Of a stretch of DNA of 64,000 nucleotides, positions 1 to 13,529 are shown piece after piece. This DNA is from an uncultured Rikenellaceae bacterium (GTDB lineage Bacteria; Bacteroidota; Bacteroidia; Bacteroidales; VadinHA17). The position numbers were made by a program, and so were the translations under genes. Each line of letters starts with the position of its first letter. Within the stretch, counting starts at the first letter, position 1. The notes below the pieces were generated by a model. The model was given only the letters and a program-made list of their open reading frames with translations. It ran no database searches and was not told the DNA's origin. The stretch covers positions 1,507-65,506 of the forward strand of contig CAZNYS010000011.1 in NCBI GenBank assembly GCA_964577305.1. The letters are read 5' to 3'.

Positions 1-1713
1 CGCGATATGCTCAAATACAGACAATCGGCAAATGCATACCGGCAGGCCATGATTATTGATTCAACTTTTTATATCCCGGCCTGGTTTGGATATGGAGAGG
101 TACAATTCCTGATTGGTAATTATTCTGAAGCAAGAAGTAATTTCATGTTATACCTGGACCTTGGAGGAGAACAAACTATCAATGCAGGAAAAACAAAGAA
201 GTATATCAGGGATTGTGATTTTGCGCTGGAGGCTATATTAAATCCTGTTGATTTCAATCCTGTTAACCTGGGTGAATCAATCAATACGAGTGATGATGAA
301 TACTGGCCGGCTATAACTGCTGATGATAATATGCTACTGTTTACACGGCAAAATTCAGTAAGGAGGCGTAACATGATAGGGAAAGAATACCAGGAAGATT
401 TCTATTACAGTTACAGGGTTGATGGAAACTGGGATGTTGCCAGAAATGCCGGGACTCCTCTGAATACCTCATATAATGAAGGTGCTCCAACATTGGAGGC
501 AGCTGGTAATTATATGTATTTCACAGCTTGCAACCGGGAGGACGGTAAAGGTGGTTGTGACATATACTATTCGGCCAGGACAGACAACGGATGGAAAAAA
601 GGCATAAATTTAGGTGGACCTGTTAATACAGCTCACTGGGAATCACAGCCATCACTCTCTTCTGATGGCTCAAGGCTTTTCTTTGTTAGTAACCGGCCTG
701 GAGGATATGGTGGAATGGATATCTGGGTAAGTAACCTGGTAAAGGATGGAAGATGGTCAGAACCTGTTAATCTTGGAGGTATTGTTAATACTCCGGGAGA
801 TGAAATGTCACCCTTTATACACTTTGATGGTAAGACACTGTATTTTTCATCCAATGGAAGGCCGTGTATGGGAGGTTTTGATATTTTTATGTCGCGATTT
901 AACAAAGAAGACAACACATGGTCAGAGCCTGAAAACCTTGGTTATCCAATAAACACCCAGACCGATGAAATTGGCATGGTAATTAATTCCTCGGGAGAAG
1001 TAGCCTATTTTTCATCTAAAATAAATACCCTTAAAGGCAGGGACCTGTATTATTTTAAAATGCCTGAATCTCTGAGACCTGATCCTGTATCTTATCTTAA
1101 AGGGAAAGTAGTAGATAAGTTGACAGGTAAAAAATTAAAAGCCACTTATGAACTCATTAACCTTAGTACAGGCAAGAGGGTGATTCAATCGTTTACAGAT
1201 TCTAAAGGTGATTTCCTGGTATGTTTGCCCACCGGCCATAATTATGGTATTAATGTGAGCAGTAAAGACTACCTTTTCTATTCGGAGAATTTTATGCTGG
1301 AAGGAGAGCACAGTTCAATAAAACCATTTGAAAAGACTATTTCCCTGAGTCCTATCCAGGTTGGTCAGCAGATGTCGCTTCATAATGTATTTTTTGCTTT
1401 TGACTCATGGGAACTGCGTGATGAATCACTACCCGAACTGGAAAAACTGTTTAGTTTGATCGAAAGCAACCATGGTCTGGTAGTTGAAATCGGGGGACAT
1501 ACTGACTCAACAGGCTCTGATGAACACAATCTTGTTCTTTCGGAGAAACGCGCACGTGTAGTTCGGGATTATCTTATCAACCGTGGTATATCACCTGATC
1601 GCTTGCATTATAAAGGTTATGGTGAAAAAGTGCCACTCTATGATAATGCCAGTGAAGAAGGTAAGCGCAAAAACAGACGCACTGATATACGTATACTGAA
1701 AATTTCGGAATAA
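1..1713 (+). CDS. OmpA-family protein with N-terminal TPR and TolB-like beta-propeller repeats (5' partial; frame is open to the window edge)
   Basis: ORF 7..1713, with the frame open upstream to nt 1. Repeated propeller motifs of the WPxxxxDG / LYFxS type. C-terminal OmpA-like domain: FAFDSWEL...GGHTDSTGSDEHNLVLSEKRARVVRDYL...RRTDIRI. Confidence 0.8.
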   Translation, partial: RDMLKYRQSANAYRQAMIIDSTFYIPAWFGYGEVQFLIGNYSEARSNFMLYLDLGGEQTINAGKTKKYIRDCDFALEAILNPVDFNPVNLGESINTSDDEYWPAITADDNMLLFTRQNSVRRRNMIGKEYQEDFYYSYRVDGNWDVARNAGTPLNTSYNEGAPTLEAAGNYMYFTACNREDGKGGCDIYYSARTDNGWKKGINLGGPVNTAHWESQPSLSSDGSRLFFVSNRPGGYGGMDIWVSNLVKDGRWSEPVNLGGIVNTPGDEMSPFIHFDGKTLYFSSNGRPCMGGFDIFMSRFNKEDNTWSEPENLGYPINTQTDEIGMVINSSGEVAYFSSKINTLKGRDLYYFKMPESLRPDPVSYLKGKVVDKLTGKKLKATYELINLSTGKRVIQSFTDSKGDFLVCLPTGHNYGINVSSKDYLFYSENFMLEGEHSSIKPFEKTISLSPIQVGQQMSLHNVFFAFDSWELRDESLPELEKLFSLIESNHGLVVEIGGHTDSTGSDEHNLVLSEKRARVVRDYLINRGISPDRLHYKGYGEKVPLYDNASEEGKRKNRRTDIRILKISE

Positions 1714-1806: not shown

Positions 1807-2631
1807 TCAGATTGCGATTCTAGATGAAACAGGTTCAGACTTATCCTTTTTCATAGCATTGTGTTCCGGAACTGAGAAATACATAGCAGTTCCGTTAACA
1901 CCATTAGGTCGTATCCATAATTCACCGTCCATACTCTCAATAAGTTTCTTTGAAAGTATGAATGAAACAGTAGTAAATGTGTTCTGATGTTTACTTAGAT
2001 ATTTTGTAAGGTTATTACAGGTAAGCAGTTCTCGATTCTTAGTGTAACCATTTCCTGAATCGATAACGTAAAATTCAACCCTGTTTTTTTGCTTCCTGTA
2101 GCCCAACTTAATATAACCTGATTCCGTATTTTCCAATGCATTGAAAAAGAGATTTCTTAAAACCCGATTAATCTTCTCTTTATCAATGAACATTGAATCA
2201 TGTCCGGATCTTTCATCAAGCAGGAGTGTAACCTTCTTCTTATCGAACCTGCTGATAGAATTGTCCAAATCATTCAGAATATCTCTGAGTAAAGTCCTGA
2301 GATCGCATCTGATGATAGTTGAACTTGGAACATCGGAATCGATTAAAGCTGAATCAAGAAAATTATCAAATAATGTAATTAACTGGTCGCATGAATTCAT
2401 AATATGATTATTATACTCGCTCCGCTCTTCCTCTGTGCAGTTATCATTATTACTCAGGAAGGTGAATGCTACTATGGAGTTCATGTAGGTTCGGACTTCA
2501 TGAGATAATCCGGTTAGTATGGAAGGAGTATATAGCATATCAGTGTTATGTACAGGATTTATCATTTCTGACTTTTCATTATGACCATGTTGTGATCCCT
2601 TCTCAATATTTTTCCCAAAAGTCATAAACAT
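1807..2631 (-). CDS. Small soluble histidine-kinase-like protein (HisKA + HATPase_c only, with no sensor or TM domain)
   Basis: H-box LSHEVRTYMNSIV. The C-terminal GHKL region contains RNLFFNALENT and YVIDSGNGY. No hydrophobic segments. Confidence 0.65.
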   Translation of the reverse strand: MFMTFGKNIEKGSQHGHNEKSEMINPVHNTDMLYTPSILTGLSHEVRTYMNSIVAFTFLSNNDNCTEEERSEYNNHIMNSCDQLITLFDNFLDSALIDSDVPSSTIIRCDLRTLLRDILNDLDNSISRFDKKKVTLLLDERSGHDSMFIDKEKINRVLRNLFFNALENTESGYIKLGYRKQKNRVEFYVIDSGNGYTKNRELLTCNNLTKYLSKHQNTFTTVSFILSKKLIESMDGELWIRPNGVNGTAMYFSVPEHNAMKKDKSEPVSSRIAI

Positions 2632-2661: not shown

Positions 2662-3396
2662 TTAGCCAATTTTTCTTAAAAGTTTCCTGGCGTCTTTCTT
2701 ATGCCTGTTTTCAGAGTTTACGACACCCTCAAGCAACTCTTTTGCCTTATCTGCCTGGTCTGTTTGTATATAACAGACACCCAGGTAGAATATGGCATCT
2801 TCAATAAAGAGGTTATCATTATCTTCAACTACCTTGCTGAAGGAACCAATGGCCTCATTATATTGACTAATATGCATGTGGGATGATCCTTTAAGAAATT
2901 CAACCTGCATATCTGCATCAACTATCCTGTTGAACCATCTTATAGCTTCAGTGTAATTGCCTGAATTATAATACTCTGTTGCCCTGGTATAGGCTTCATC
3001 CAGTCCTGCCGATGATGAACGGTATGCAGCCAATGGAGCATATCCAGGTGAGTATTTTGTTGCGATATCCGCAATGTTGTTGTTCCTGATATAGAGACTA
3101 ATGGTCCCGATTAATATCAGGCCCGCAAATACAGCAGCATACTGGATGACCTGTTTTGTGGCAACCTTCCTTTTGGCTACAGTTTTTCTATGCCTGGTTT
3201 CAGCATTCATAAGACTCTGCCTGAAGGCAATAGCATCCTGGTTATCAACATATTTGTTTACCTTTCTGCGCAATTCAAGTTCTTTCTTTAAGCCCGGGTT
3301 ACCCTCAAGCTCTGCTTCGAACCATTCTTTTTCAGCGCTTTGCATATTGCCCTCGAGATATCTTTCGATAAAACGGGTGAATTCAATTTTTTTCAT
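2662..3396 (-). CDS. Anti-sigma-factor-like single-pass membrane protein with an extracytoplasmic TPR domain
   Basis: The N-terminus FIERYLEGNMQSAEKEWFEAELEGNPGLKKELELRRK resembles the Bacteroidota anti-sigma N-terminal helix pattern. One TM segment (VIQYAAVFAGLILIGTISLYI). TPR-like C-terminus (YNSGNYTEAIRWF, AIFYLGVCYIQTDQADKAKELL). Confidence 0.5.
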   Translation of the reverse strand: MKKIEFTRFIERYLEGNMQSAEKEWFEAELEGNPGLKKELELRRKVNKYVDNQDAIAFRQSLMNAETRHRKTVAKRKVATKQVIQYAAVFAGLILIGTISLYIRNNNIADIATKYSPGYAPLAAYRSSSAGLDEAYTRATEYYNSGNYTEAIRWFNRIVDADMQVEFLKGSSHMHISQYNEAIGSFSKVVEDNDNLFIEDAIFYLGVCYIQTDQADKAKELLEGVVNSENRHKKDARKLLRKIG

Positions 3397-3658
3397 AACG
3401 TGTAGTATTTCATTTTCATTTCATTTCGAATTTATTATTCTTCTGTTTATGTTAACTACCACATTATCAAAGTAATGTAGATAGATAAAGTACATTCATC
3501 ATCATTCAGTCATTGCCTGATAGCAATGCATTCAAAAACAGTGGTATATAGTATTTTTACATACTTTAGCCACCCCGGCCCTAATTTATTTAGCCGGTAC
3601 CGTAATACGGTTCTAATATTTTACAGATCGCTGTATTTCTTTTCCTTTGATCTGGCTA

Positions 3659-3793
3659 TTAGATCTCAGGTTCTGTGATAGGGGGAACTGTCATTTGTTT
3701 TTCACCATCACCGCCGCGTACGAGCAGCATTTCTTCGTCTGAAAGTAAAAAGTCGTTGAAATTTTCAAATTTTTCCTGATTTAAAGTTCTCAT
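3659..3793 (-). CDS. Double-glycine (GG) leader peptide precursor, 44 aa (not in the ORF track because it is under 60 aa)
   Basis: Manual reverse-complement translation gives MRTLNQEKFENFNDFLLSDEEMLLVRGG-DGEKQMTVPPITEPEI, then TAA. The leader fits the Bacteroidota GG-leader pattern (LN.EKF..F...LS.EEM....GG). A C39-peptidase ABC exporter and an HlyD gene lie 4 kb away. Confidence 0.7.
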   Translation of the reverse strand: MRTLNQEKFENFNDFLLSDEEMLLVRGGDGEKQMTVPPITEPEI

Positions 3794-4021
3794 CTTAATA
3801 ATTTTTTTGGTTACACTTCTAAATAATCGGGTTTATTATTACGTTACATATATACATGTCACTTTAATGCTTTTTGTGACACGAAAATTTCAACTTTTTT
3901 TTATGACAGTTTATAAAACCCAGATATACAAGAGTGTACATTATATATTTTTTTTGGCTTTTAGCTTTCTTATACTGATATTTGGTGCTTGTGTGGTAAA
4001 TAATTGTAAACATAATAATAA

Positions 4022-7021
4022 ATGCGGATTATTTCCAGATATATATTTATACGGATTATCATTATTCTATGTTTCATTCAGGATTTAGAAGCCCGTCAGT
4101 TTAACAATGTAAACGAGAAAGATTCAGTAATCGTAAACAAGCTCAACAGCTTTAAGACTGCTTTGCAGGAAAGCAGTCCCGATGCAAGCTTATATTATAA
4201 CTGGATTCTGAACTATCTTGGAACCAATGATATTAGCGACAGTATACTTATATCAGATTGTTATTACTATACCGGAACATATAAATACATCGGGAACTCT
4301 TACAATGATGCTATAGAATTATTACAGGAGGCAATCAGGTACAGGATTGCCGTTGACAGCATAGATGATATTTATGCCAGGGCTAGAACAAATCTGGCAC
4401 TTTCGTACATGTATACGGGTAAACCGGAGGAGGCTCGTGTAAACCTCGAAATGGCTCTTAAAACCAGGGAAGGGCTATTTGGAACTGAATCACCAATACT
4501 CCTCAGGACACTGTTGAATCTGTCAGCGATATATATTGACATGAATATGCATGAAAGAGCATTACCAATTTCGCTCAGGGGTGTCCATCTGGCAGAAAAT
4601 CACCCGGAAGATATCGATAAGGGGACCCTTGTGAACTTTTATTATAATTCCGGTGTGTCATATATGAATATTCTGGATTATAACAGAGCAAAAAGAAATT
4701 TTGAAATTGCCTATGACCTTGCGCAGGAAAGTTTGAGTTTAGATCCCGAAAAGCTTTTACTTTTATATAATTCAATCGCCGCATGTAATTATGAGCTTGG
4801 CAATTCCGATTTATCTGACCAATATTTTGGAAAAGCATTGGAGCTGATTGATTCAACTGGTTTTTCAGGAAGATTGGTAAATGCGGTATATGAGAATTAT
4901 GCTTTTTTCCTGGCCGGTATAGGGATGTATGACAAAGCAGAGCATTATTTATTATCATCAGTTGAAGAAGCTGAGAAAGAATACGGGAAAGAGAGCAGGG
5001 ATCATATAATACAGCTTCTGAATTACTCTTACTTCCTGATAAATAATATGGCAAATTACAGCGAAGCGGAAGAAATATTAAAAAAAGTACTGCCATATGT
5101 GAATGAAAATAAGCAAGATAAAAGGGTCAGGAGTGAGGCTTTTCTATATTTTTCCAGGCTGATGTATTATACAGGAAGGAATTCAGAAGCTTTGAGATAT
5201 ATTAATAACATAATTAATGATTCTTCAATAGTGGCTTCAAATATCAGGATTGCTTCTTTTATACATAAAAGTAAAATACTATATACGATATACAGGTCAG
5301 GGAATGATAGTCAGAATCTCAGGGAAGCTTTATCAGCAGTAGAACAAGCTATAGCTATTATAGAGGCTACGAGGCTGAGGATAAACGAGGATGAGAGTCG
5401 TAGCAGGGTGTCTGGCAGATATTTTGACGCTTACGATATAGCAATAGCCATATTGAATGAATTGTACAGCCTTACAAAAGATAAGGAATACATCGAACAG
5501 GCTTTTTCTATTTCAGAAAAATCAAAGGCTGCAGGTTTACTTGTAGCAACCAGGAATAACAGGGCAATGAATTTCCACCTGCCCAATGGTCTTGCCAGCC
5601 TTGAAAGAGAACTGCAGGCTGATATCAGAGATTATAACGAGGTGATATATAATGAATCTGCAAAACAAAAACCGGATAATGATCTTATTGATCGCTATCG
5701 CCATCTAAGCGTCAGGGCAGGTAGTAAGTATGATTCACTTGTACGGATCTTTGAACAGGAGTATCCCCGGTATTATAACCTTAAGTTTAACACGGCGGTG
5801 AGTTCTGCTGATGATATACGAAGAAGGATAGGCAGAAAAGGTAACTTTGTTGAATATTACTTATCAGATAGTCTCTTATATATTTTCCTGATAAACCGTG
5901 AAAGATTTGAGATTGAATCAGTGCCGGCAGGTGATGGTTTGCTTGAGATGATCCTTGATTTCAGAAATATTCTCACCAATCCGTCAATAGTCAATGAGTC
6001 CTGGACACAATACCTGGAATATGTTGAGCTCGCCTTAGAATTATATAAAAGACTGTTACTCCCGGTGAGGGATTACTTTATCTCAGAAAGGCTCATTATT
6101 TCTGCAGATGATATACTTTCATATATTCCTTTTGAAACACTGATAAGCGAAATCCCTGAATATAATGAAATAAATTACCGTGAGTTAGCCTATATGATGA
6201 GAGAATATGAGATAATCTATGAATACTCCGGTACCATATTATCAGAAACATTATCATCACACCGTAGCATAAATAATAAAGTATTGAGCTTTGCGCCGGA
6301 ATATACAGGGAGTATCGATATTGAAGAACTTATGATGAGCAGGCAGTTTGATCGTGACAATCTGACCAATATCCCCGGTGCCAGGGAAGAAGCAATATAT
6401 ATCAATAAATTGCTTGGTGGGAAACTATATATCGATGACCAGGCAACTGAAAGCATATTCAAATCAAATGTAATTGAAGGCGATATAATACACCTGGCCA
6501 TGCACACACTGTTGAACGATAATGAACCCATGTATTCGAAAATGATCTTTAACATGGAAGCCGACACAGTTGAAGATGGTATGCTTAATACCTTTGAGGT
6601 TTACAATATACCCGTTAAATCAAAGATGATGTTTCTAAGTGCCTGTAATACCGGAAGTGGTTACCTGCAATCTGGTGAGGGAGTAATGAGTTTGGCCAGG
6701 GGATTCTTCTATTCAGGAAGCCCGTGTGTAATAATGTCTTTATGGGAAGTGGATGACCGTTCGGGAAACGATATTGTAAAAGATTTCTATTCTAATCTAA
6801 AAATGGGCTTCTCAAAAAGTAAGTCACTTAAAAAAGCAAGAACTAAGTACCTTACAGATGCTGATCAGATGAGGTCGCATCCTTACTTCTGGAGTACCCT
6901 GGTGATAATGGGTAATGATGACTCTGTATATTTCCCTTTTAAAAGGTACCTCCTCATAGCAGTCCTTATCATCATCCTTTATTTTCTTGCAAGGTATTAC
7001 TACAGGTTAAAATCGGTGTAA
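4022..7021 (+). CDS. TPR-repeat CHAT-domain (caspase-like) protease with an N-terminal signal/anchor and a C-terminal TM helix
   Basis: Hydrophobic N-terminus MRIISRYIFIRIIIILCFIQDLEA. About 600 aa of TPR-like repeats. CHAT His/Cys dyad context: IIHLAMHTLL and MMFLSACNTGSG. C-terminal TM segment YLLIAVLIIILYFLARYYY. Confidence 0.8.
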   Translation: MRIISRYIFIRIIIILCFIQDLEARQFNNVNEKDSVIVNKLNSFKTALQESSPDASLYYNWILNYLGTNDISDSILISDCYYYTGTYKYIGNSYNDAIELLQEAIRYRIAVDSIDDIYARARTNLALSYMYTGKPEEARVNLEMALKTREGLFGTESPILLRTLLNLSAIYIDMNMHERALPISLRGVHLAENHPEDIDKGTLVNFYYNSGVSYMNILDYNRAKRNFEIAYDLAQESLSLDPEKLLLLYNSIAACNYELGNSDLSDQYFGKALELIDSTGFSGRLVNAVYENYAFFLAGIGMYDKAEHYLLSSVEEAEKEYGKESRDHIIQLLNYSYFLINNMANYSEAEEILKKVLPYVNENKQDKRVRSEAFLYFSRLMYYTGRNSEALRYINNIINDSSIVASNIRIASFIHKSKILYTIYRSGNDSQNLREALSAVEQAIAIIEATRLRINEDESRSRVSGRYFDAYDIAIAILNELYSLTKDKEYIEQAFSISEKSKAAGLLVATRNNRAMNFHLPNGLASLERELQADIRDYNEVIYNESAKQKPDNDLIDRYRHLSVRAGSKYDSLVRIFEQEYPRYYNLKFNTAVSSADDIRRRIGRKGNFVEYYLSDSLLYIFLINRERFEIESVPAGDGLLEMILDFRNILTNPSIVNESWTQYLEYVELALELYKRLLLPVRDYFISERLIISADDILSYIPFETLISEIPEYNEINYRELAYMMREYEIIYEYSGTILSETLSSHRSINNKVLSFAPEYTGSIDIEELMMSRQFDRDNLTNIPGAREEAIYINKLLGGKLYIDDQATESIFKSNVIEGDIIHLAMHTLLNDNEPMYSKMIFNMEADTVEDGMLNTFEVYNIPVKSKMMFLSACNTGSGYLQSGEGVMSLARGFFYSGSPCVIMSLWEVDDRSGNDIVKDFYSNLKMGFSKSKSLKKARTKYLTDADQMRSHPYFWSTLVIMGNDDSVYFPFKRYLLIAVLIIILYFLARYYYRLKSV

Positions 7022-7566
7022 TCACTGAATTCAGGGTCAGCTTTCACTATTTTAATCAGTGCTTCTTTACATAGATATTTTTTTCGGCGAGCGTAATCTG
7101 CTGATTTATAATTCATTTCACGGGCAATATGGCTATAATCATGACCTTTGATAACCATATTAAGCACTTCCTGGCATTCCGGTTTCAGTTTCAGGAAAGA
7201 CCGCTGTACTATTTGTTCCAACGGAGTGTCAAGCAAATTCGAAGGATCAAAATCATCAACCAGTTCTTTATCCATCTCAACATTTTTCCTCTTCTTCCTG
7301 AGATGCTCGTGCCATAAATTCTTGGAAACACCAAAGACATATCCCTTAACATCGGTATTTTCTTCAAGGTTGTTAAGTTGTATCTTCTTGAAAAGTACCA
7401 TCAGGGCATCCTGGAATATATCATATGCATCATCTTCCGTACCTGTATTCTTCAGTACATATGATTTTATGGTATCGAAAAATGAGTCATAGAGGTAGTT
7501 AACTGATTTATCGTCCCCCTTTCGTATTCCCTCTATTAATTTTGTATCTGAGTGTTTATTTAACAC
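7000..7566 (-). CDS. ECF-type sigma-70 family RNA polymerase sigma factor
   Basis: 188 aa. Region 2 (DAYDIFQDALMVLFKK ... GYVFGVSKNLWHEHLRKKRK) and region 4 HTH (CQEVLNMVIKGHDYSHIAREMNYKSADYARRKKYLC). Apparent GTG start. The 3' end overlaps the CHAT gene by 22 nt. Confidence 0.8.
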   Translation of the reverse strand: MLNKHSDTKLIEGIRKGDDKSVNYLYDSFFDTIKSYVLKNTGTEDDAYDIFQDALMVLFKKIQLNNLEENTDVKGYVFGVSKNLWHEHLRKKRKNVEMDKELVDDFDPSNLLDTPLEQIVQRSFLKLKPECQEVLNMVIKGHDYSHIAREMNYKSADYARRKKYLCKEALIKIVKADPEFSDYTDFNL

Positions 7567-7703
7567 TTCATAATAGTATTTGAGGCAAATATAGTATTTC
7601 CAAATAATTAACTCAATGATTTAAGACTAATAAGCAGTTGTAACAGTATGTTTGAATAGAATCAAATAATAGATATATTTACAGACTTTAACTATTGTTC
7701 GGT

Positions 7704-9890
7704 ATGTCATTTCCTTTCGAAAGGCAAGCAGATGCTATGGATTGTGGTCCTACCTGTCTTCAGATGGTTGCCCGTTTCTATGGTAAGAAGTTCAGCCTCC
7801 CTGATTTGAGGGGCAAGAGTTATATTACCAGGGAGGGAGTTTCTTTCCTGGGTATATCCGAAGCAGCAGAATCAGTTGGATTCAGGACTATTGGTGTTCG
7901 TATACCTTTTGCCAAGCTTGCTGAAGAGACTCCATTACCCTGTATTGTGCACTGGAGGCAAAAACATTTTGTTGTAGTACATAAGATTAAGAAAGACAGC
8001 GTGCATGTTGCCGATCCTGCAAGGGGACTGGTGAAATATTCCAGGGAAGAATTTGAGAAAAACTGGGCTATGACAACGATCGATGAGGAAAAGGTGGGTC
8101 TGGTACTGATACTTCAACCCACTCCTGAATTCTATGAGCAGGAAGAGGCAAAAGAGGGGAAATCAGGATTCAGCTTTCTTCTACGTTATATTAAGATGTA
8201 CAGGAAGTATTTCTTCCAGATCTTTCTTGGATTATTCATAGGTAGTCTTATACAGCTGATCTTTCCGTTTCTGACACAGTCGGTTATCGATATCGGTATA
8301 AATACCAATGACCTTGGATTTATTTACCTTATACTTTTTGCACAACTTGCCCTGGTTTTAGGGAGAATGACCGTTGAATTTGTTCGTGGATGGCTGTTAC
8401 TGCATATCAGTACCAGGGTTAACGTGGCCATTGTTTCAGGCTTTCTTTACAAACTGATGGCTTTGCCAGTATCATATTTCGATACCAAGTTAAGTGGTGA
8501 CCTGTTACAGAGAATTGAAGATAACCAGCGGATAGAGTCATTTCTCAGTAACACCTCATTAAGTGTGCTGTTCTCGTTTGTTAACCTCCTGGTTTTCGGT
8601 ATTGTCCTGGCTATATATAATTCAACCATACTGCTTATCTTCCTTGCCGGCACTACTTTTTACATTGCCTGGGTATCCGTTTTTATGCGGTCGCGTGCTC
8701 AGCTTGATCATAAGAGGTTTAAACAGCTGTCTGACAATAATGCCAAACTGATTGATATAATCACCGGTATGCAGGAGATTAAGCTTACTCAAAGTGAAAC
8801 AAGTAAAAGATGGGATTGGGAGAATGTCCAGGCATCACTGTTCAAAACAAGAGTAAAGGCAATGAGTCTTTCACAATACCAGCTTGCAGGTGGAAGATTG
8901 ATAAATGAAGCATCCAATGTGCTTATTACTATTATCGCGGCTGCTGCAGTATTATCAGGGAGCATGACACTTGGTATGATGCTGGCCGTACAGTTTATTA
9001 TCGGCCAGTTAAATATCCCGGTGAACCAGATGGTTGTGTTTTTCAGGACAGCACAGGATGCAAGAATGAGCCTTGACAGGCTTTCTGAAATACAATCCAG
9101 TCAGCCTGAAGAGTTGGAGGATGAAATGAAAGTAAAAAACCTGCCGGCAAACAAGAATATCTATATAAATAACCTATCATTCCAGTATGAAGGGCCACGT
9201 TCACCATTTGTCCTGAAAGATATCGATATAGTAATACCTGAGAAGAAGATCACTGCCGTGGTTGGTACCAGCGGCAGCGGAAAGACAACAATGCTAAAAC
9301 TTATGCTTGGATTCTATAACCCTGTTGAAGGAGATATACTGGTTGGCGACACAAACCTCAGGAATCTCAGTCTCAAAGTATGGAGACAAAAGATAGGTGT
9401 AGTGATGCAGGACGGTTATATTTTTCCTGATACCATAGCTAATAATATTGCTCCCGGCATTGATGTAATTGACAGTGATAAATTATTAAAATCAATCTCA
9501 ATTGCTAATATGAACGATTTTGTTGATACTTTGCCATTGGGCATAAATACAAGGATAGGACATAACGGTCATGGATTGAGCCAGGGACAGAAACAACGAA
9601 TATTGATAGCCAGGGCAGTATATAAAAATCCTGATTACCTGTTTTTTGATGAGGCCACAAACTCACTTGATGCCGCCAATGAAAAGAAGATAGTTACAAA
9701 TCTTAATGAATTTTTCTCAGGCAAGACAGTGTTGATAATTGCTCACAGGCTAAGTACGGTGCGTAATTCTGATAATATTGTGGTTATCGATAAAGGCCGG
9801 ATGATAGAAAGTGGCACTCATCCTGAACTGATAAGCAGGAAAGGCATATATTACAACCTGGTACGTGACCAGTTGGAGCTTGGTAACTGA
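7704..9890 (+). CDS. C39 peptidase domain-containing ABC exporter (bacteriocin/GG-peptide processing and export type)
   Basis: C39 catalytic Cys in DAMDCGPTCLQM and His in IVHWRQKHFVVVH. Six-TM exporter core. Walker A GTSGSGKTT, signature LSQGQKQR, Walker B LFFDEATNSLD. ATG at 7704 preferred over the TTG at 7695 used by the track. Confidence 0.9.
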   Translation: MSFPFERQADAMDCGPTCLQMVARFYGKKFSLPDLRGKSYITREGVSFLGISEAAESVGFRTIGVRIPFAKLAEETPLPCIVHWRQKHFVVVHKIKKDSVHVADPARGLVKYSREEFEKNWAMTTIDEEKVGLVLILQPTPEFYEQEEAKEGKSGFSFLLRYIKMYRKYFFQIFLGLFIGSLIQLIFPFLTQSVIDIGINTNDLGFIYLILFAQLALVLGRMTVEFVRGWLLLHISTRVNVAIVSGFLYKLMALPVSYFDTKLSGDLLQRIEDNQRIESFLSNTSLSVLFSFVNLLVFGIVLAIYNSTILLIFLAGTTFYIAWVSVFMRSRAQLDHKRFKQLSDNNAKLIDIITGMQEIKLTQSETSKRWDWENVQASLFKTRVKAMSLSQYQLAGGRLINEASNVLITIIAAAAVLSGSMTLGMMLAVQFIIGQLNIPVNQMVVFFRTAQDARMSLDRLSEIQSSQPEELEDEMKVKNLPANKNIYINNLSFQYEGPRSPFVLKDIDIVIPEKKITAVVGTSGSGKTTMLKLMLGFYNPVEGDILVGDTNLRNLSLKVWRQKIGVVMQDGYIFPDTIANNIAPGIDVIDSDKLLKSISIANMNDFVDTLPLGINTRIGHNGHGLSQGQKQRILIARAVYKNPDYLFFDEATNSLDAANEKKIVTNLNEFFSGKTVLIIAHRLSTVRNSDNIVVIDKGRMIESGTHPELISRKGIYYNLVRDQLELGN

Positions 9891-9896
9891 TTAATT

Positions 9897-11210
9897 ATGA
9901 CGAAACAGTCACATGAAATAAGATATTCCCGACCCGTGGAGGATATAATGAACACCCCTCCCAGGTCTATGGTTCGATGGGGCACTGCAATAGCGACAAT
10001 AGTAATAATATTGCTTCTGTTCCTTTCCTGGATTATAAAATACCCTTATATAATAAGGGCTGAAGCCGTAATAACAACAGAAAAGCCGCCGGCAAATATA
10101 GTTGCAAGGGTATCAGGTAATATAGAACATCTCTTTGTAAGCGACGGAGAAAAGATTTCATCAGGATCAATCCTTGGAGTAATGGAAACTACCGCTACTT
10201 ACGAGAGTATACAGTGGTTGAGTTCATTGCTCGATACGGTGAAAACAGAAGACATGTCATCTGCAAATGAAAAAGTGATCCGGAAATTACCGAATAACCC
10301 TGTTCTGGGTGAGATACAGGATCAGTATTCAACCTTCAGGAAAAACTACTATGACTATATAAACCATATAGAAATTGACTATTACGGGAAAAAAATAGAG
10401 GCTGTTAATGAGGAAATAAAGAGTATCGAAGACTATATCAGGCAGCTCAAAAGCAAAGAGGCCCTGACAGCCTCTAACCTTGAGGTAGAGAAAAAGAAAT
10501 ACCTGAGAGATTCACTACTGAACGAGCAGAACATTTTACCTGATGCTGAACTGGAAAATTCAAAGCAGAAATTTTATTCCTTAAAGATCGAACTGGTTCA
10601 GGTTGTACTGGAAGCTTCATCAAGACGTATTGACCTTGCATCTAAAAAGCAGGAGTTGCAGGATTTGACTGCTGCCCGCGAAGAAGAAAGACAAAGGTAT
10701 ATTTCCGCCGTTGACGATGAGCTTATGAAACTTAAAGCAAGACTCGAATGGTGGATACAGGATTACCTGCTCGTTTCACCCATTGACGGAAATGTGACTT
10801 TTACGAGGTACTGGTCAGAAAATCAGTCTGTAAGGGAAGGAGAAACAGTAATGACGGTTGTGCCCCAGGGCGAAAGTGAAATATTTGCCCGTATTATGAT
10901 CCCGATGGCAGGCTCCGGGACAGTGAAAGAAGGGCAGAATGTTAACATACAGCTGGAAGGATATCCTTACCTTGAATATGGAATGGTTCAGGGTATAATA
11001 GAATCACGTTCACTGGTCCCACAAGAAGATCTATATGTCCTCGATGTTAGTTTACCCGACGGCTTATCAACATTTTATGGAAAGCAACTCGATTTCAGCC
11101 AGAATATGTCAGGAAGGGCTGAAATTATAACCGAGGATATGAGGTTGATCGAGAGACTGATATATCCTTTTAAATACCTTGTCGAAAAGAACAGGAGAGC
11201 GGGCAATTAA
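9897..11210 (+). CDS. HlyD-family membrane fusion / secretion adaptor protein
   Basis: Single N-terminal TM (WGTAIATIVIILLLFLSWII), a long coiled-coil middle and a beta-rich C-terminus. It starts 6 nt after the ABC exporter gene. Confidence 0.8.
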   Translation: MTKQSHEIRYSRPVEDIMNTPPRSMVRWGTAIATIVIILLLFLSWIIKYPYIIRAEAVITTEKPPANIVARVSGNIEHLFVSDGEKISSGSILGVMETTATYESIQWLSSLLDTVKTEDMSSANEKVIRKLPNNPVLGEIQDQYSTFRKNYYDYINHIEIDYYGKKIEAVNEEIKSIEDYIRQLKSKEALTASNLEVEKKKYLRDSLLNEQNILPDAELENSKQKFYSLKIELVQVVLEASSRRIDLASKKQELQDLTAAREEERQRYISAVDDELMKLKARLEWWIQDYLLVSPIDGNVTFTRYWSENQSVREGETVMTVVPQGESEIFARIMIPMAGSGTVKEGQNVNIQLEGYPYLEYGMVQGIIESRSLVPQEDLYVLDVSLPDGLSTFYGKQLDFSQNMSGRAEIITEDMRLIERLIYPFKYLVEKNRRAGN

Positions 11211-11432
11211 TAATCAGTCGGCATTTTAATACAAAAAATTTAGATTTTTAGCATTCTGTCATCTTCGGCAATAGATATGACCAGTGTTTAAGTTGTTGTG
11301 TAACAGTGATAAAATATAAAAACTCTTATTCTTTGAGTTTTTCTAAATAATTCGATATTTTCGTAACCTTGATTGGTCTCAGATTTAAGTAATTAATAAA
11401 TCTGCAAATGTGCTCAAATAAAAGGATTAGTT

Positions 11433-13529
11433 ATGACTGTTATAAATCCGGATGATTCTGTTCGTGATGAACAATTCGATGCAGAAAATGAATCTGCCGA
11501 AACTAATAGTGAAACCAACAAAGCTGAAACAAAAGCTGAATCAAAAGAAGAAGGATCTACCACCAATGGTGAGGATTTGAAATCCGAACCTGATAAAGAG
11601 GCTTCCGTCTCCGCCATGGCTGCGGAGGATAAGAAGGTTAAGGGAAAAGAAGAAGAATCTACTAATGGTGAAGATTCAAAATCCGAACCTGATAAAAAGC
11701 AAAAAGCTGAGGAGAAAGAGGAGGCTAAGGCAGATGACATTTCAGAGGATAGTGAAGATTCGTCAGGAAAGGGAACTGAGGAAGAACCTGACGAATTGCC
11801 GGAGGTTGACTATACGGGGAGATCTAAGGTTGAGCTCACGGAAACTCTTGAATTACTTATTGAAAACAGGCCGCTGAATGAGATAGTCGATGATGTTGAC
11901 AAGATAAAAACCATATTCTATAAAAAGCATAAGGCAGAACTCGATAAAAAGAAGAAAAAATTCCTGGAAGAAGGAGGGAGAATTGAAGATTATCAGCCTG
12001 CCGATGATCCGTTGGAGCTTAAAATAAAAAACCTTCTTGCCCGCTTCAGGGGTAAGAAAACTGAATACAACAAACAGCTCGAAGTTGAGAAACAGGAAAA
12101 CCTCAGGAAAAAGTATGATATAATTGATAAGATAAAAGACCTGGTTAACAGGGAAGAATCAATTAATAAAACATTCCAGGAATTCAGGGATTTGCAGGCC
12201 CAGTGGCACTCAACAGGCATAGTGCCTCAGTCTTCGCTCAGGAACCTTTGGGAAACCTATAACCTGAATGTTGAAATTTTCTATGATTATATTAAGATTA
12301 ACAAGGAACTGAGGGACCTGGACTTAAAAAAGAACCTGGAAAGCAAAATTAAGCTGTGCGAAAAAACGGAAGAACTTTTATTGGACCCCAATGCTGTGAA
12401 TGCTTTCAGAGCTCTTCAGGAATACCACCAGCAATGGAGAGAAATAGGGCCGGTTCCAAGAGAGTCAAGGACAGAATTGTGGGATAGATTCAAGGCTGCT
12501 ACTTCAAATATAAATAAGAGACATCACGAATATTTTGAAAAGCAGAAGGACGAACAAAAAAAGAATTTGGAAGCCAAAACGGCATTATGCGAAAAAGTAG
12601 AGGAAATAAATAATCTTAAATTAAAAACCTTCAAAGATTGGGAAAGTAAAGCCAAAGAGGTAATTGAAATACAAAAAGTTTGGCGTACTATAGGCTTTGC
12701 TCCCAAAAGACATAATAACAGCATTTACCAGAGATTCAGAGAAGGCTGTGATGCTTTCTTCCAGGCAAAAAGAGAATTCTATGCCGAAAACAGAGAACAG
12801 CAGTTGGCTAACCTTCAGAAAAAAACTGAATTATGCATGCAGGCAGAAACATGGAAGGACAGCACTGAATGGAAAGAAGCAACTGATGCCCTGATAAACT
12901 TGCAGAAAGAATGGAAGGAGATAGGTACTGTTCCCAGAAAACACTCGGATAAAATATGGCGACGATTTAGAAAAGCCTGTGATCGCTTTTTTGAAAGAAA
13001 ATCAGAACATTTTACTGAACTGGACAGCTCCTTTGAAGATAATCTTAAAGAAAAAGAAAAGCTTATAGACGAACTTGAAAATTTCGATCCGGGGGACGAT
13101 ATTAATGAGGCTTTTGAAAAACTTAAGGAGATTCAAAGAAAATGGACTGAAGTAGGTTTTGTACCATATAAAGATAAGGATAAAATAGGAAACCGGTACA
13201 GGAATGCCCTGAATGAACAATTCGACAGGCTGAAAATAGATGAGGACGAGAAAGCTATTCTTAAATTTCAGACAAAGCTGGAGAATATCAAGGAAACGCC
13301 AAAAGCAACAAGAAAACTAAGGGGAGAGAGAGAAAAATTCATAAACAGGATTAAACAACTTGAGAATGACATTGTTGTGTGGGAAAATAATATTGGCTTC
13401 TTTTCAAAATCAAGCAATGCAGAGTCGATGATCCAGGAAGTGCAGTCAAAAATTGACAACGCGAAGAAAACAATAGAAGTGCTTGAAGAAAAAATAAAGC
13501 TGATTGACCAGTCGGGAATTGATAATTAA
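11433..13529 (+). CDS. DUF349 repeat protein with an acidic low-complexity N-terminus
   Basis: Multiple DUF349-type repeats of about 75 aa (W..IG.VP......LW.RF......F..). The N-terminal 120 aa are E/K/D/S-rich. Confidence 0.7.
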   Translation: MTVINPDDSVRDEQFDAENESAETNSETNKAETKAESKEEGSTTNGEDLKSEPDKEASVSAMAAEDKKVKGKEEESTNGEDSKSEPDKKQKAEEKEEAKADDISEDSEDSSGKGTEEEPDELPEVDYTGRSKVELTETLELLIENRPLNEIVDDVDKIKTIFYKKHKAELDKKKKKFLEEGGRIEDYQPADDPLELKIKNLLARFRGKKTEYNKQLEVEKQENLRKKYDIIDKIKDLVNREESINKTFQEFRDLQAQWHSTGIVPQSSLRNLWETYNLNVEIFYDYIKINKELRDLDLKKNLESKIKLCEKTEELLLDPNAVNAFRALQEYHQQWREIGPVPRESRTELWDRFKAATSNINKRHHEYFEKQKDEQKKNLEAKTALCEKVEEINNLKLKTFKDWESKAKEVIEIQKVWRTIGFAPKRHNNSIYQRFREGCDAFFQAKREFYAENREQQLANLQKKTELCMQAETWKDSTEWKEATDALINLQKEWKEIGTVPRKHSDKIWRRFRKACDRFFERKSEHFTELDSSFEDNLKEKEKLIDELENFDPGDDINEAFEKLKEIQRKWTEVGFVPYKDKDKIGNRYRNALNEQFDRLKIDEDEKAILKFQTKLENIKETPKATRKLRGEREKFINRIKQLENDIVVWENNIGFFSKSSNAESMIQEVQSKIDNAKKTIEVLEEKIKLIDQSGIDN

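Follow-up and report, generated by a model that had tools for sequence, protein, structure and literature searches.

A 64,000-nucleotide stretch of DNA from an uncultured Rikenellaceae bacterium (GCA_964577305.1, contig CAZNYS010000011.1, positions 1,507-65,506 of the forward strand), here called the window and used as the frame for all coordinates, carries a gene module that is a conserved, apparently undescribed signalling unit of the Bacteroidota and probably works as a self-inducing gene switch. The four core parts of the module are a precursor peptide with a double-glycine leader, an exported and membrane-anchored protein in which tetratricopeptide repeats (TPRs) are joined to a CHAT domain, a sigma factor of the extracytoplasmic function (ECF) type, and a single-pass anti-sigma protein with a small periplasmic TPR domain. 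The explanation that best accounts for the whole, which we favour with somewhat less than even confidence, is a peptide-ECF autoinduction switch in which the periplasmic CHAT protein would act both as sensor and as site-1 protease. Searches of full texts from a part of the journals turned up no description of a Bacteroidota module combining CHAT, a double-glycine peptide and an ECF factor.

Linkage of the module across Bacteroidota

A scan of one genome per species, with a CHAT profile built from 10 sequences, found relatives of the CHAT protein in at least 597 species-level genomes. The best 80 CHAT loci (labelled in the style L001-L080), all 80 of them from Bacteroidota, were analysed by calling open reading frames (ORFs) in every locus and searching these with profiles iterated from the window proteins. 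Loci are referred to as window-type when their flanks are those of the window, that is, a gene of the OmpA family on one side and DUF349, pyrG and yidC on the other. Close CHAT homologs, with 33-68% identity, have the gene order of the window and the same OmpA-family, DUF349, pyrG and yidC flanks, so that these loci alone would indicate inherited synteny only.

Inheritance of a neighbourhood was nevertheless rejected as the sole explanation, since the linkage persists with different flanks and in different gene orders. At L005, where the CHAT protein is 29% identical and the context unrelated, the sigma gene and the gene of a 253-residue TPR protein diverge from a cytolysin-like gene plus CHAT, and at L006, from a Psychroserpens isolate (26% identity), the sigma factor, a 241-residue TPR protein and CHAT are encoded by three consecutive genes on the same strand. 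Cultivable carriers include, besides Psychroserpens, Draconibacterium sp. IB214405 (L077), Sunxiuqinia dokdonensis DH1 (L041) and Ancylomarina longa (L064). There are at least four arrangements: the window type; CHAT on the plus strand followed by the anti-sigma and sigma genes on the minus strand; the anti-sigma and sigma genes on the minus strand ahead of CHAT on the plus strand; and a single operon. Of the loci, 52 extend for 4 kb or more on each side of CHAT; a sigma gene lies within 4 kb of CHAT in 47 of them and a gene for the TPR (anti-sigma) protein in 48; the corresponding figures for the 25 of these loci that have non-window flanks are 20 and 21. The family profile of the sigma factor matched 69 ORFs at 4 kb or less from CHAT, in a total of 558 kb, and the 648 kb beyond that distance contained no match. 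The pairing of CHAT with the sigma factor, which had first been read from the sequence of the window alone, is thus kept elsewhere in rearranged orders and between unrelated flanks, and the gene neighbourhoods support the view that CHAT, the ECF-type sigma factor and the membrane-bound TPR protein form a genuine functional unit.

In the lineage of the window, the module occupies a fixed position in the core genome, between the PorE-like gene and DUF349-pyrG-yidC, over a range of CHAT identity from 100% to 33%. Such a position points to vertical inheritance and is atypical of defence islands. A PADLOC search gave no defence-system match for the CHAT protein, the sigma factor or the anti-sigma protein, and together with the fixed position this weakens a reading of the module as part of a defence island.

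The TPR-CHAT protein

The TPR-CHAT gene (4022-7021, plus strand) encodes 999 residues, and the features noted when the sequence was first read, a hydrophobic N-terminus, a TPR array, a His/Cys dyad in the motifs HLAMH and LSACNTGSG and a C-terminal transmembrane helix, are all present where they had been placed. Residues 670-965 match the Pfam CHAT family (PF12770) over the whole profile with E=1e-47 and 163 bits, against a cut-off of 24, and Pfam TPR_12 and TPR_10 are matched as well. Re-translation assigns H824 and H828 to HLAMH (nucleotides 6491-6493 and 6503-6505) and C875 to LSACNTGSG (6644-6646), so that the catalytic residues span 6491-6646. That these residues would be conserved in orthologs was borne out: all three are unchanged in every sequence of two alignments, one of 25 and one of 47 homologs, which reach down to 16-18% identity, and the GEG and SLW motifs around them are near-invariant in homologs down to 16% identity. 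The invariance of H824, H828 and C875 argues for retained catalysis, and the CHAT protein is predicted to have kept its catalytic activity.

A confident AlphaFold2 model built on 47 sequences (pLDDT, the predicted local distance difference test, 86.9; pTM, the predicted template modelling score, 0.81) consists of an N-terminal helix, a low-confidence stretch at residues 21-30, a TPR superhelix that runs to about residue 600 and makes up 60% of the protein, an alpha/beta CHAT domain, and a terminal helix at residues 973-998. The overall layout is that of a signal-peptide-like N-terminus (residues 1 to about 24), the TPR superhelix (about 32-600), a caspase-like domain (about 605-965), a transmembrane segment (about 971-995) and a basic tail. 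Compared with the Protein Data Bank (PDB) by Foldseek, the model has its best match in Csx29 of Craspase (8eey_B, E=1.2e-16), with human separase (9hma, E=5.9e-14), the Myxococcus protein DdvA (8rw5, E=4.6e-13; 8rw5 and 8rot_A about 5e-13) and yeast separase (5u1t_A, E=1.1e-10) also being matched. A sequence search of the PDB with the same protein returned only TPRs of the kinesin-light-chain type.

The protein has two hydrophobic segments, residues 1-19 and 971-989. The hydrophobic N-terminus is conserved among CHAT homologs and is followed by A-x-A- or AQ-type sites. Its conservation throughout the family speaks against its being the product of a wrongly chosen start codon, and that explanation was rejected. 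According to the positive-inside rule, the basic side of a transmembrane helix is the cytoplasmic one. A C-terminal transmembrane helix is present in 67 of 70 CHAT homologs, with a mean net charge of +0.04 over the 12 residues before it and +3.57 over the 12 residues after it, and 64 of the 67 carry more positive charge after the helix. Taken with the rule, this bias places the tail in the cytoplasm and the TPR-CHAT body outside the membrane; signal-peptide-like N-termini and the charge bias together predict a periplasmic protease body, as had been considered for the case of a cleaved signal peptide. The sequence-only reading had called such a location unusual for CHAT, and it is indeed rare, but it is no longer unprecedented, given that DdvA of Myxococcus is a transmembrane anti-sigma factor that carries a TPR-CHAT domain in the periplasm, proposed to be its own site-1 protease (PMC11506125). 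With relatives in at least 597 species-level genomes, exported CHAT proteases would constitute a large family and not a single oddity. Two loci have two tandem CHAT genes beside one sigma/anti-sigma pair (L065:9120-15861 and L069:9392-16128).

The sigma factor and the anti-sigma-like protein

The gene of the divergent ECF-type sigma factor (7000-7566, minus strand; 188 residues) converges with the CHAT gene, and their 3' ends overlap by exactly 22 nucleotides (7000-7021), as had been read originally. The protein consists of the sigma2 and sigma4 regions. It matches Sigma70_r2 above the cut-off (E=1.9e-7) and the sigma70-ECF model TIGR02937 just below it (40.7 bits, cut-off 42.9), while its orthologs match Sigma70_r4 or r4_2. 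Among proteins of solved structure, SigW and SigE match it best, and the alignments extend over sigma2 and sigma4 (residues 31-180 in the case of SigE). CHAT is not named in the main text of the paper that classifies ECF factors (PMC7826278). Beyond sigma4, the sigma factor has a short C-terminal tail (residues about 174-188; 7000-7045, minus strand) with a K.DPE[YF].. motif that is conserved across the sigma family.

On the other side of the peptide gene, a 244-residue protein is encoded at 2662-3396 on the minus strand, and it has the single transmembrane helix and the extracytoplasmic TPR domain that had been ascribed to it. It comprises a three-helix N-terminus (residues 1 to about 70), a transmembrane segment (residues 83-101; 3094-3150), a linker (residues 102-131) and a domain of three TPRs (residues 133-242; 2671-3000), the C-terminal part (residues about 134-243) matching Pfam TPR_2, ANAPC3 and TPR_19. 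In its AlphaFold2 model (m930259a20c7f), the TPRs have pLDDT values of 86-93 and the three N-terminal helices, which run into the transmembrane helix, of 63-79, whereas the linker falls below 50 at residues 102-109 and 123-131. Across 62 homologs the mean net charge is +3.61 before the transmembrane segment and +0.23 after it, a bias that predicts a cytoplasmic N-terminus and a periplasmic TPR domain.

The assignment of this protein as the cognate anti-sigma factor gained support from its relatives. At L006, L038, L042, L043, L073 and other loci the anti-sigma gene adjoins the sigma gene or overlaps its end, and is translationally coupled downstream of it; at L043 and L073 this occurs in the arrangement with CHAT on the plus strand followed by both genes on the minus strand. 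Such a layout is the usual one of sigma/anti-sigma operons. Among 14 N-termini of the family, 5 match Pfam zf-HC2 (PF13490), the model of an anti-sigma domain, with a best E of 5e-4. With the charge bias of the transmembrane segment, these observations make it likely that the 244-residue protein is an anti-sigma factor. The N-terminal consensus of the family is F-I-E-R-Y-L-x-G-E-M-x3-E-x3-F-E-x-E-L. A profile search of the PDB with this N-terminus found no anti-sigma structure, the best match being a Nif11 leader, and there is no Cys in residues 1-80 of the 244-residue protein, nor are there Cys/His zinc ligands in its N-terminus. In public annotation the homologs appear only as 'tetratricopeptide repeat protein', 'CDC27 family protein' or 'TolA-binding protein', names under which a regulatory role is invisible in current databases.

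The linker contains a conserved motif, Y119...R126-S127 (KYSPGYAPLAAYRSS, 3016-3042, minus strand). R126 is invariant in 28 close homologs, the R-S column is conserved in an alignment of 52 diverse family members, and 61 of 62 homologs, long forms of about 500 residues included, carry Y..Y..R-S in a permissive form. A site-1 protease would need just such a conserved motif in a flexible stretch next to the membrane, and clan CD proteases often depend on one particular residue at P1, Arg for example. The motif is a candidate recognition or cleavage site for a protease. The long forms of the anti-sigma protein (497-530 residues; L046, L047, L057, L058, L059, L074, L077 and L078) have about 330 cytoplasmic residues before the transmembrane segment and the same periplasmic linker motif and TPR domain.

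Promoter motifs and the proposed feedback loop

A putative bipartite promoter of the ECF type precedes the peptide gene (GTGTCACAAAAAGCATTAAAGTGACATG, 3855-3882, minus strand). It consists of a -35-like GTCACA, a spacer of 14 nucleotides and a -10-like (C/T)GAC, and it is conserved 50-70 nucleotides upstream of the peptide start in window-type loci. The element resembles TGTAAC...CGAC/CGTA promoters of Bacillus ECF sigma factors. Its generalised form, GT[CT]AC[ACG]-N13-15-[CT]GA[AC], precedes the peptide gene in 26 of the 30 window-clade loci, and in window-type loci it is found upstream of none of 32 sigma genes, 35 CHAT genes and 32 anti-sigma genes.

In sister clades the element reads GGTTACCTTTT-N11-13-(C)GAAT (GGTTACC...CGAAT) and has the geometry of the window-clade motif. 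The pattern G[GT][TG][TA]AC[CGA]TTT-N10-15-GAAT has only 22 matches in 2.95 Mb on both strands, of which 9 precede a sigma ORF by 13-18 nucleotides, 8 precede a peptide ORF and 1 precedes a kinase gene; a wider version of the motif gives an agreeing result. At L057, L058, L074 and L077 it precedes both the sigma and the peptide gene. A motif shared by sigma and peptide genes is the signature of an autoregulated ECF sigma factor whose predicted regulon includes the peptide, and the presence of the same promoter before the peptide gene and, in sister clades, before the sigma gene implies a feedback loop from the sigma factor to the peptide. The recognition helix of sigma4 also tracks the type of -35 element, with YARRKKY accompanying GTCACA and YAKKRKF/Y accompanying GTTACC.

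The window sigma gene is preceded by a housekeeping box of the Bacteroidetes sigmaA type (TATATTTG), and a k-mer search upstream of sigma genes found mainly the Bacteroidetes housekeeping TAnnTTTG box. With such a box and with none of 32 sigma genes carrying the peptide-type motif, the sigma factor of the window clade would not be autoregulated through a promoter of the peptide type. Upstream of CHAT, an ECF-type motif was found in 0 of 35 window-type loci and in 1 of 49 elsewhere, the exception being L005. Its absence from nearly all CHAT genes is consistent with CHAT acting upstream of the sigma factor and not as one of its outputs. A scan for promoters and terminators of the E. coli type returned 32 matches against 25.8 expected, the consensus being uninformative for Bacteroidota.

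The peptide, the exporter and the kinase

The precursor peptide (3659-3793, minus strand) has 44 residues. Its leader (residues 1-28; 3710-3793) ends in ...EEMLLVRGG, with the double glycine at G27-G28, and is followed by a core of 16 residues (residues 29-44; 3662-3709; DGEKQMTVPPITEPEI) that is acidic, Pro-rich and Cys-free. The double glycine is invariant in 16 aligned homologs, and a profile from the 44-residue ORF retrieved 52 small ORFs that share this leader (...EEMxxVRGG). When 51 of them were counted by position, 48 proved to be 1 kb or less from a CHAT gene and nearly always divergent from it. Where enough upstream sequence is available, 43 of 63 loci have a peptide gene directly upstream of CHAT; outside the window-type context the figure is 17 of 36. 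By these counts the peptide gene is the partner most tightly linked to CHAT, and a predicted core component of the module.

Across homologs the cores have 10-25 residues, are Pro-rich with acidic ends (PPITEPEI, PPVIIEI, DVFDFEEE), contain no Cys, and share no conserved residue that might serve all of them as P1. Similarity to families with double-glycine leaders is weak and sub-threshold; no curated peptide family was matched above its threshold, the best being TIGR04149 (E=0.092, 12.7 bits, cut-off 25). The ORF map and domain scans revealed no maturase, modification-enzyme or immunity gene at the locus. A small radical S-adenosylmethionine (rSAM) gene upstream in L001-L004 was rejected as a maturase of the peptide, as it encodes 207 residues, occurs in window-type context only and is separated from the module by the OmpA-family gene. 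Several loci have two or three tandem paralogous peptide genes with near-identical cores (L077:8822-9306; L034:9100-9492; L059:976-1146 and 3301-3462), and the three copies of L077, from Draconibacterium, end in DVFDFEEE. Between the peptide gene and the anti-sigma gene of the window lies an unusually long spacer of 262 nucleotides (3397-3658) with short palindromes such as ACCGTAATACGGT at 3599-3611. This spacer might serve as a leaky terminator, or as a second promoter, that sets the ratio of peptide to anti-sigma protein.

Beyond the sigma gene, on the plus strand, are the genes of a peptidase-containing ATP-binding cassette (ABC) transporter of the C39 type (7695-9890) and of its partner, a periplasmic adaptor (membrane-fusion) protein of the HlyD family (9897-11210; Pfam HlyD_3, NCBIfam TIGR01843 type_I_hlyD). 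The transporter has a Peptidase_C39 domain (E=5e-37) with the catalytic Cys (DAMDCGPTC) and His, and ABC_membrane and ABC_tran domains, and it matches NCBIfam families of bacteriocin and NHLP exporters. C39-ABC and HlyD genes lie beside the module in a different arrangement at L056, L071 and L076, and the two genes stay together in every arrangement. A soluble histidine kinase of 274 residues (1807-2631, minus strand), with HisKA and HATPase_c as its only domains and with no transmembrane segment, input domain or adjacent response regulator, is encoded by the last gene of a peptide/anti-sigma/kinase transcription unit, which is followed by a terminator-like hairpin at 1754-1728. Kinase homologs are found downstream of the anti-sigma gene in window-type loci and in 7 of the 25 loci with other flanks. 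Examples elsewhere are L056:6658-7581 and L063:7659-8432, the latter preceded by an ECF-type motif. We regard the kinase and the C39-ABC/HlyD exporter as accessory parts of the module.

The window begins inside the gene of a PD40/OmpA protein (7-1713, plus strand), which forms the conserved left flank of the module in the lineage of the Rikenellaceae window. The protein is related to PorE, scoring about 300 bits against the PorE model of the type IX secretion system and the CHU_0125 OmpA-like model, below the cut-offs of both. A review of that secretion system does not contain CHAT as a word. To the right of the exporter genes lies the DUF349 gene (11433-13529, plus strand). A Ser-rich ORF of 108 residues (11414-11740, minus strand), antisense to the acidic low-complexity N-terminus encoded by that gene, is most likely a compositional artefact.

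Proposed mechanism and alternatives

Judging from the domains present, the 44-residue precursor would be cut after G28 and exported through the C39-ABC/HlyD pump. The sigma factor would be made from its housekeeping-type promoter and tethered to the membrane through the N-terminus that the anti-sigma protein extends into the cytoplasm, as the features of the family and the operons of relatives suggest. On the periplasmic face, with the C-terminal helix as anchor, TPR-CHAT would stand upstream of the sigma factor as sensor and site-1 protease and, by analogy with DdvA and with classical regulated intramembrane proteolysis, might cut the anti-sigma protein in its disordered linker at Arg126-Ser127. 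The trigger for cutting would be the binding of the mature peptide, or of some other cue in the periplasm, to either of the two TPR modules. A protease acting within the membrane could then free the sigma factor, again by analogy, and free sigma factor would, to judge from the promoters, transcribe the peptide gene and the downstream anti-sigma and kinase genes. The outcome would be positive feedback with a built-in reset, in other words a quorum-sensing-like switch driven by peptide autoinduction. Both the role of CHAT as site-1 protease for the anti-sigma protein, by analogy with other systems, and the binding of the peptide by its TPR array we infer.

A number of observations weigh against this scheme. 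The N-terminus of the 244-residue protein of the window reaches no anti-sigma Pfam model, and the sigma and anti-sigma genes of the window, on the same strand, are 3.6 kb apart with CHAT between them. A specificity of CHAT for Arg at P1 is assumed by extension from other clan CD proteases, and Csx29 does not cleave after Arg. The co-variation of sigma4 with the -35 element is confounded by phylogeny and hence only suggestive. The window-clade element is partly palindromic in the window and in several orthologs (TGTCAC-N13-GTGACA), and a dyad-symmetric element could be the operator of another, dimeric regulator. C39-ABC/HlyD pumps normally carry their substrates right through both membranes, and a 16-residue peptide could then be sensed in the periplasm only after re-entry or leakage. 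Finally, the profile search detected no peptide gene in 19 of the 36 loci outside the window-type context, and at L005 the position of the peptide is taken, under the same type of promoter, by a 626-residue homolog of thiol-activated cytolysins (L005:3633-5699; PF01289, 5e-39). The cytolysin gene lies upstream of CHAT on the same strand, and motifs of the form GGGTAACC...GATAT precede it as well as the divergent sigma gene. The cytolysin and the missing peptide genes suggest that the neighbour driven by the sigma factor may be an effector or a substrate and not a signal. In its most specific form, that of a first peptide-autoinducer circuit in Bacteroidota in which an acidic 16-mer would be read by a stand-alone periplasmic TPR-CHAT protein, an Arg-Ser bond cut and the peptide gene transcribed by the sigma factor, the proposal is possible but doubtful.

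The peptide and the cytolysin could also fit into a circuit in which CHAT trims, activates or destroys a secreted product induced by the sigma factor, while the three TPRs of the anti-sigma protein sense that product, for instance by its acidic C-terminus, and the sigma factor is controlled conventionally. The adjacency of peptide and CHAT, with 48 of 51 peptide ORFs within 1 kb, is the tightest of the module, the cytolysin homolog of L005 takes the place of the peptide in an operon with CHAT, and the ectodomain of the anti-sigma protein is of the compact kind that binds short peptides, with the TPR domains of STI1 and FKBP4 among its profile matches in the PDB. We nonetheless consider this alternative rather unlikely, as the cores have no common P1 residue whereas the R-S of the anti-sigma linker is near-universal, as it leaves unexplained why the sigma/anti-sigma pair stays linked to CHAT where no peptide gene was found, and as in the fused DdvA the CHAT domain is tied to the anti-sigma factor itself.

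A switch of the DdvA type, sensing a foreign or damage-related periplasmic protein as a sign of envelope stress or invasion, would make the peptide or the pore-former an antagonistic effector instead of an autoinducer. DdvA-DdvS controls a defence island and has been proposed to sense a periplasmic protein cue (PMC11506125), neighbourhoods of a caspase with an ECF sigma factor plus a TPR protein have been predicted to be conflict systems (PMC8195603), and the output gene of L005 is cytolysin-like. Peptides with double-glycine leaders and C39-ABC exporters are, moreover, classically bacteriocins, and the leader has weak matches to bacteriocin leaders. The core, however, with its 16 residues, is short, and it differs from cationic class II bacteriocins in being net acidic, rich in Pro and free of Cys; the locus has neither an immunity gene nor a modification enzyme; PADLOC gave no match for the CHAT protein, the sigma factor or the anti-sigma protein; and the fixed core-genome position, over CHAT identities from 100% to 33%, indicates vertical inheritance. 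On balance this alternative is quite improbable.

That CHAT is a non-proteolytic co-receptor or scaffold, its TPR array (60% of the protein) holding the anti-sigma ectodomain or the peptide while the sigma factor is freed by a conformational change or by Prc/CtpA- or DegS-like enzymes, is very unlikely in view of the strict invariance of H824, H828 and C875 and the near-invariant GEG and SLW motifs (to 16% identity), which argue for kept catalysis, even though many anti-sigma systems have unrelated site-1 proteases, mutation of the DdvA dyad is expected to be silent in unstimulated cells and DdvA proteolysis is still unproven (PMC11506125).

Significance

To our knowledge, peptide-based cell-cell signalling is essentially uncharted in Bacteroidota, and for most ECF sigma/anti-sigma pairs we know of neither the signal nor the site-1 protease. 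The module offers a candidate for each step, namely a signal peptide, an exporter, a caspase-like protease with a TPR sensor, a cut site in a linker and a read-out promoter, and the whole pathway could therefore be tested with few mutants and one synthetic peptide. It may also be regarded as a naturally split DdvA: the proposed self-cleavage by the CHAT domain of DdvA could not be verified because its signal is unknown, and here the likely signal is encoded next door. If the proposed autoinduction switch is true, a signalling route that joins a caspase-family site-1 protease with peptide communication would exist in hundreds of species.

Comparison with known systems

Recurrent neighbourhoods of a caspase-superfamily protease with an ECF sigma factor plus a TPR protein have been recognised by comparative genomics around EACC2 (PMC8195603), and in this respect resemble the present module. 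Those neighbourhoods are, however, built on the EACC2 adaptor with variable C-terminal domains, contain a DUF1822 TPR protein of another family, and are predicted to be intracellular conflict systems for which neither a double-glycine peptide nor a topology of signal peptide plus transmembrane segment has been described (PMC8195603). The streptococcal circuits ComC/ComAB/ComDE and BlpC/BlpAB/BlpRH (PMC7595303) share with the module a double-glycine leader that is cleaved and exported by a C39-ABC transporter, an autoinduced peptide gene and a kinase gene in the locus. Their sensors are a membrane histidine kinase with a response regulator (PMC7595303), whereas the kinase found here has no membrane or input domain and no adjacent response regulator, the predicted output is an ECF-type sigma factor, and the host is Gram-negative with an adaptor protein in its exporter. 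In lantibiotic producers, those of microbisporicin among them, a peptide is autoinduced through an ECF sigma/anti-sigma pair, MibX/MibW or PspX/PspW (PMC4973701). A ribosomal exported peptide in a feed-forward loop with such a pair, in which the sigma factor drives the peptide gene, is what the two have in common, but those hosts are Actinobacteria, the peptide is a heavily modified antibiotic, there is no CHAT protein and the route by which the anti-sigma factor is inactivated is unknown (PMC4973701).

Classical class I proteolysis of anti-sigma factors is represented by RseA/DegS/RseP with sigmaE and by RsiW/PrsW/RasP with sigmaW (outlined in PMC11506125). The anti-sigma protein described here is likewise single-pass, with a predicted sigma-binding part in the cytoplasm and a sensor domain in the periplasm, and would be served by a dedicated site-1 protease on the periplasmic side. 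The candidate for that protease is a caspase-like CHAT enzyme of clan CD with a TPR sensor of about 570 residues, whereas the classical enzymes are serine or metalloproteases, and it differs also in being encoded within the sigma/anti-sigma module.

The sequence-only reading had drawn an analogy, put as a question, with the type III-E Craspase system (Cas7-11, Csx29, Csx30, Csx31 and RpoE; PMC10028731) and its logic of Csx30 and RpoE, in a version independent of CRISPR. The independence stands, as there is no CRISPR-like array in the 64-kb window and no cas gene among the neighbours. The analogy holds in part: the fold agrees, Csx29 being the best structural match of the CHAT model (8eey_B, 1.2e-16), and so does the general logic of a TPR-CHAT protease coupled to an ECF-family sigma factor and a presumed substrate that binds the sigma factor. 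It fails in the compartment and in the components, since Craspase is cytoplasmic and activated by RNA-guided Cas7-11, whereas the protease described here is predicted to be exported and has no array, cas gene or homolog of Csx30 or Csx31 beside it.

The nearest precedent is not Craspase but DdvA-DdvS, published in 2024, which the sequence-only reading had not named. In both, a TPR-CHAT domain of the separase/craspase fold on the periplasmic side of the inner membrane (a predicted location in the present case) is genetically tied to an ECF sigma factor, a flexible linker between the transmembrane segment and the ectodomain of the anti-sigma factor is the proposed cut site, and site-1 cleavage followed by intramembrane proteolysis is the proposed sequence of events; in DdvA, it is this linker that has been proposed as the target of CHAT (PMC11506125). 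DdvA is, however, a single polypeptide, composed of a zinc-binding anti-sigma domain (ZASD), a transmembrane segment, a linker, TPRs and CHAT, whereas here the anti-sigma protein and the protease are separate and CHAT is without an anti-sigma domain. The protease has its own signal-peptide-like N-terminus and C-terminal anchor, and the anti-sigma protein ends after its own three TPRs and has none of the CHCC zinc ligands that characterise the anti-sigma domain of DdvA. The DdvA regulon comprises genes of CRISPR and of the cyclic-oligonucleotide-based anti-phage signalling system (CBASS), whereas the predicted regulon of the present module includes a double-glycine-leader peptide. DdvA-like proteins have been reported only from Myxococcota and one Comamonas (PMC11506125), and the family described here is one of Bacteroidota. 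The present module is thus a split form of the DdvA type in another phylum, furnished with a peptide and an exporter.

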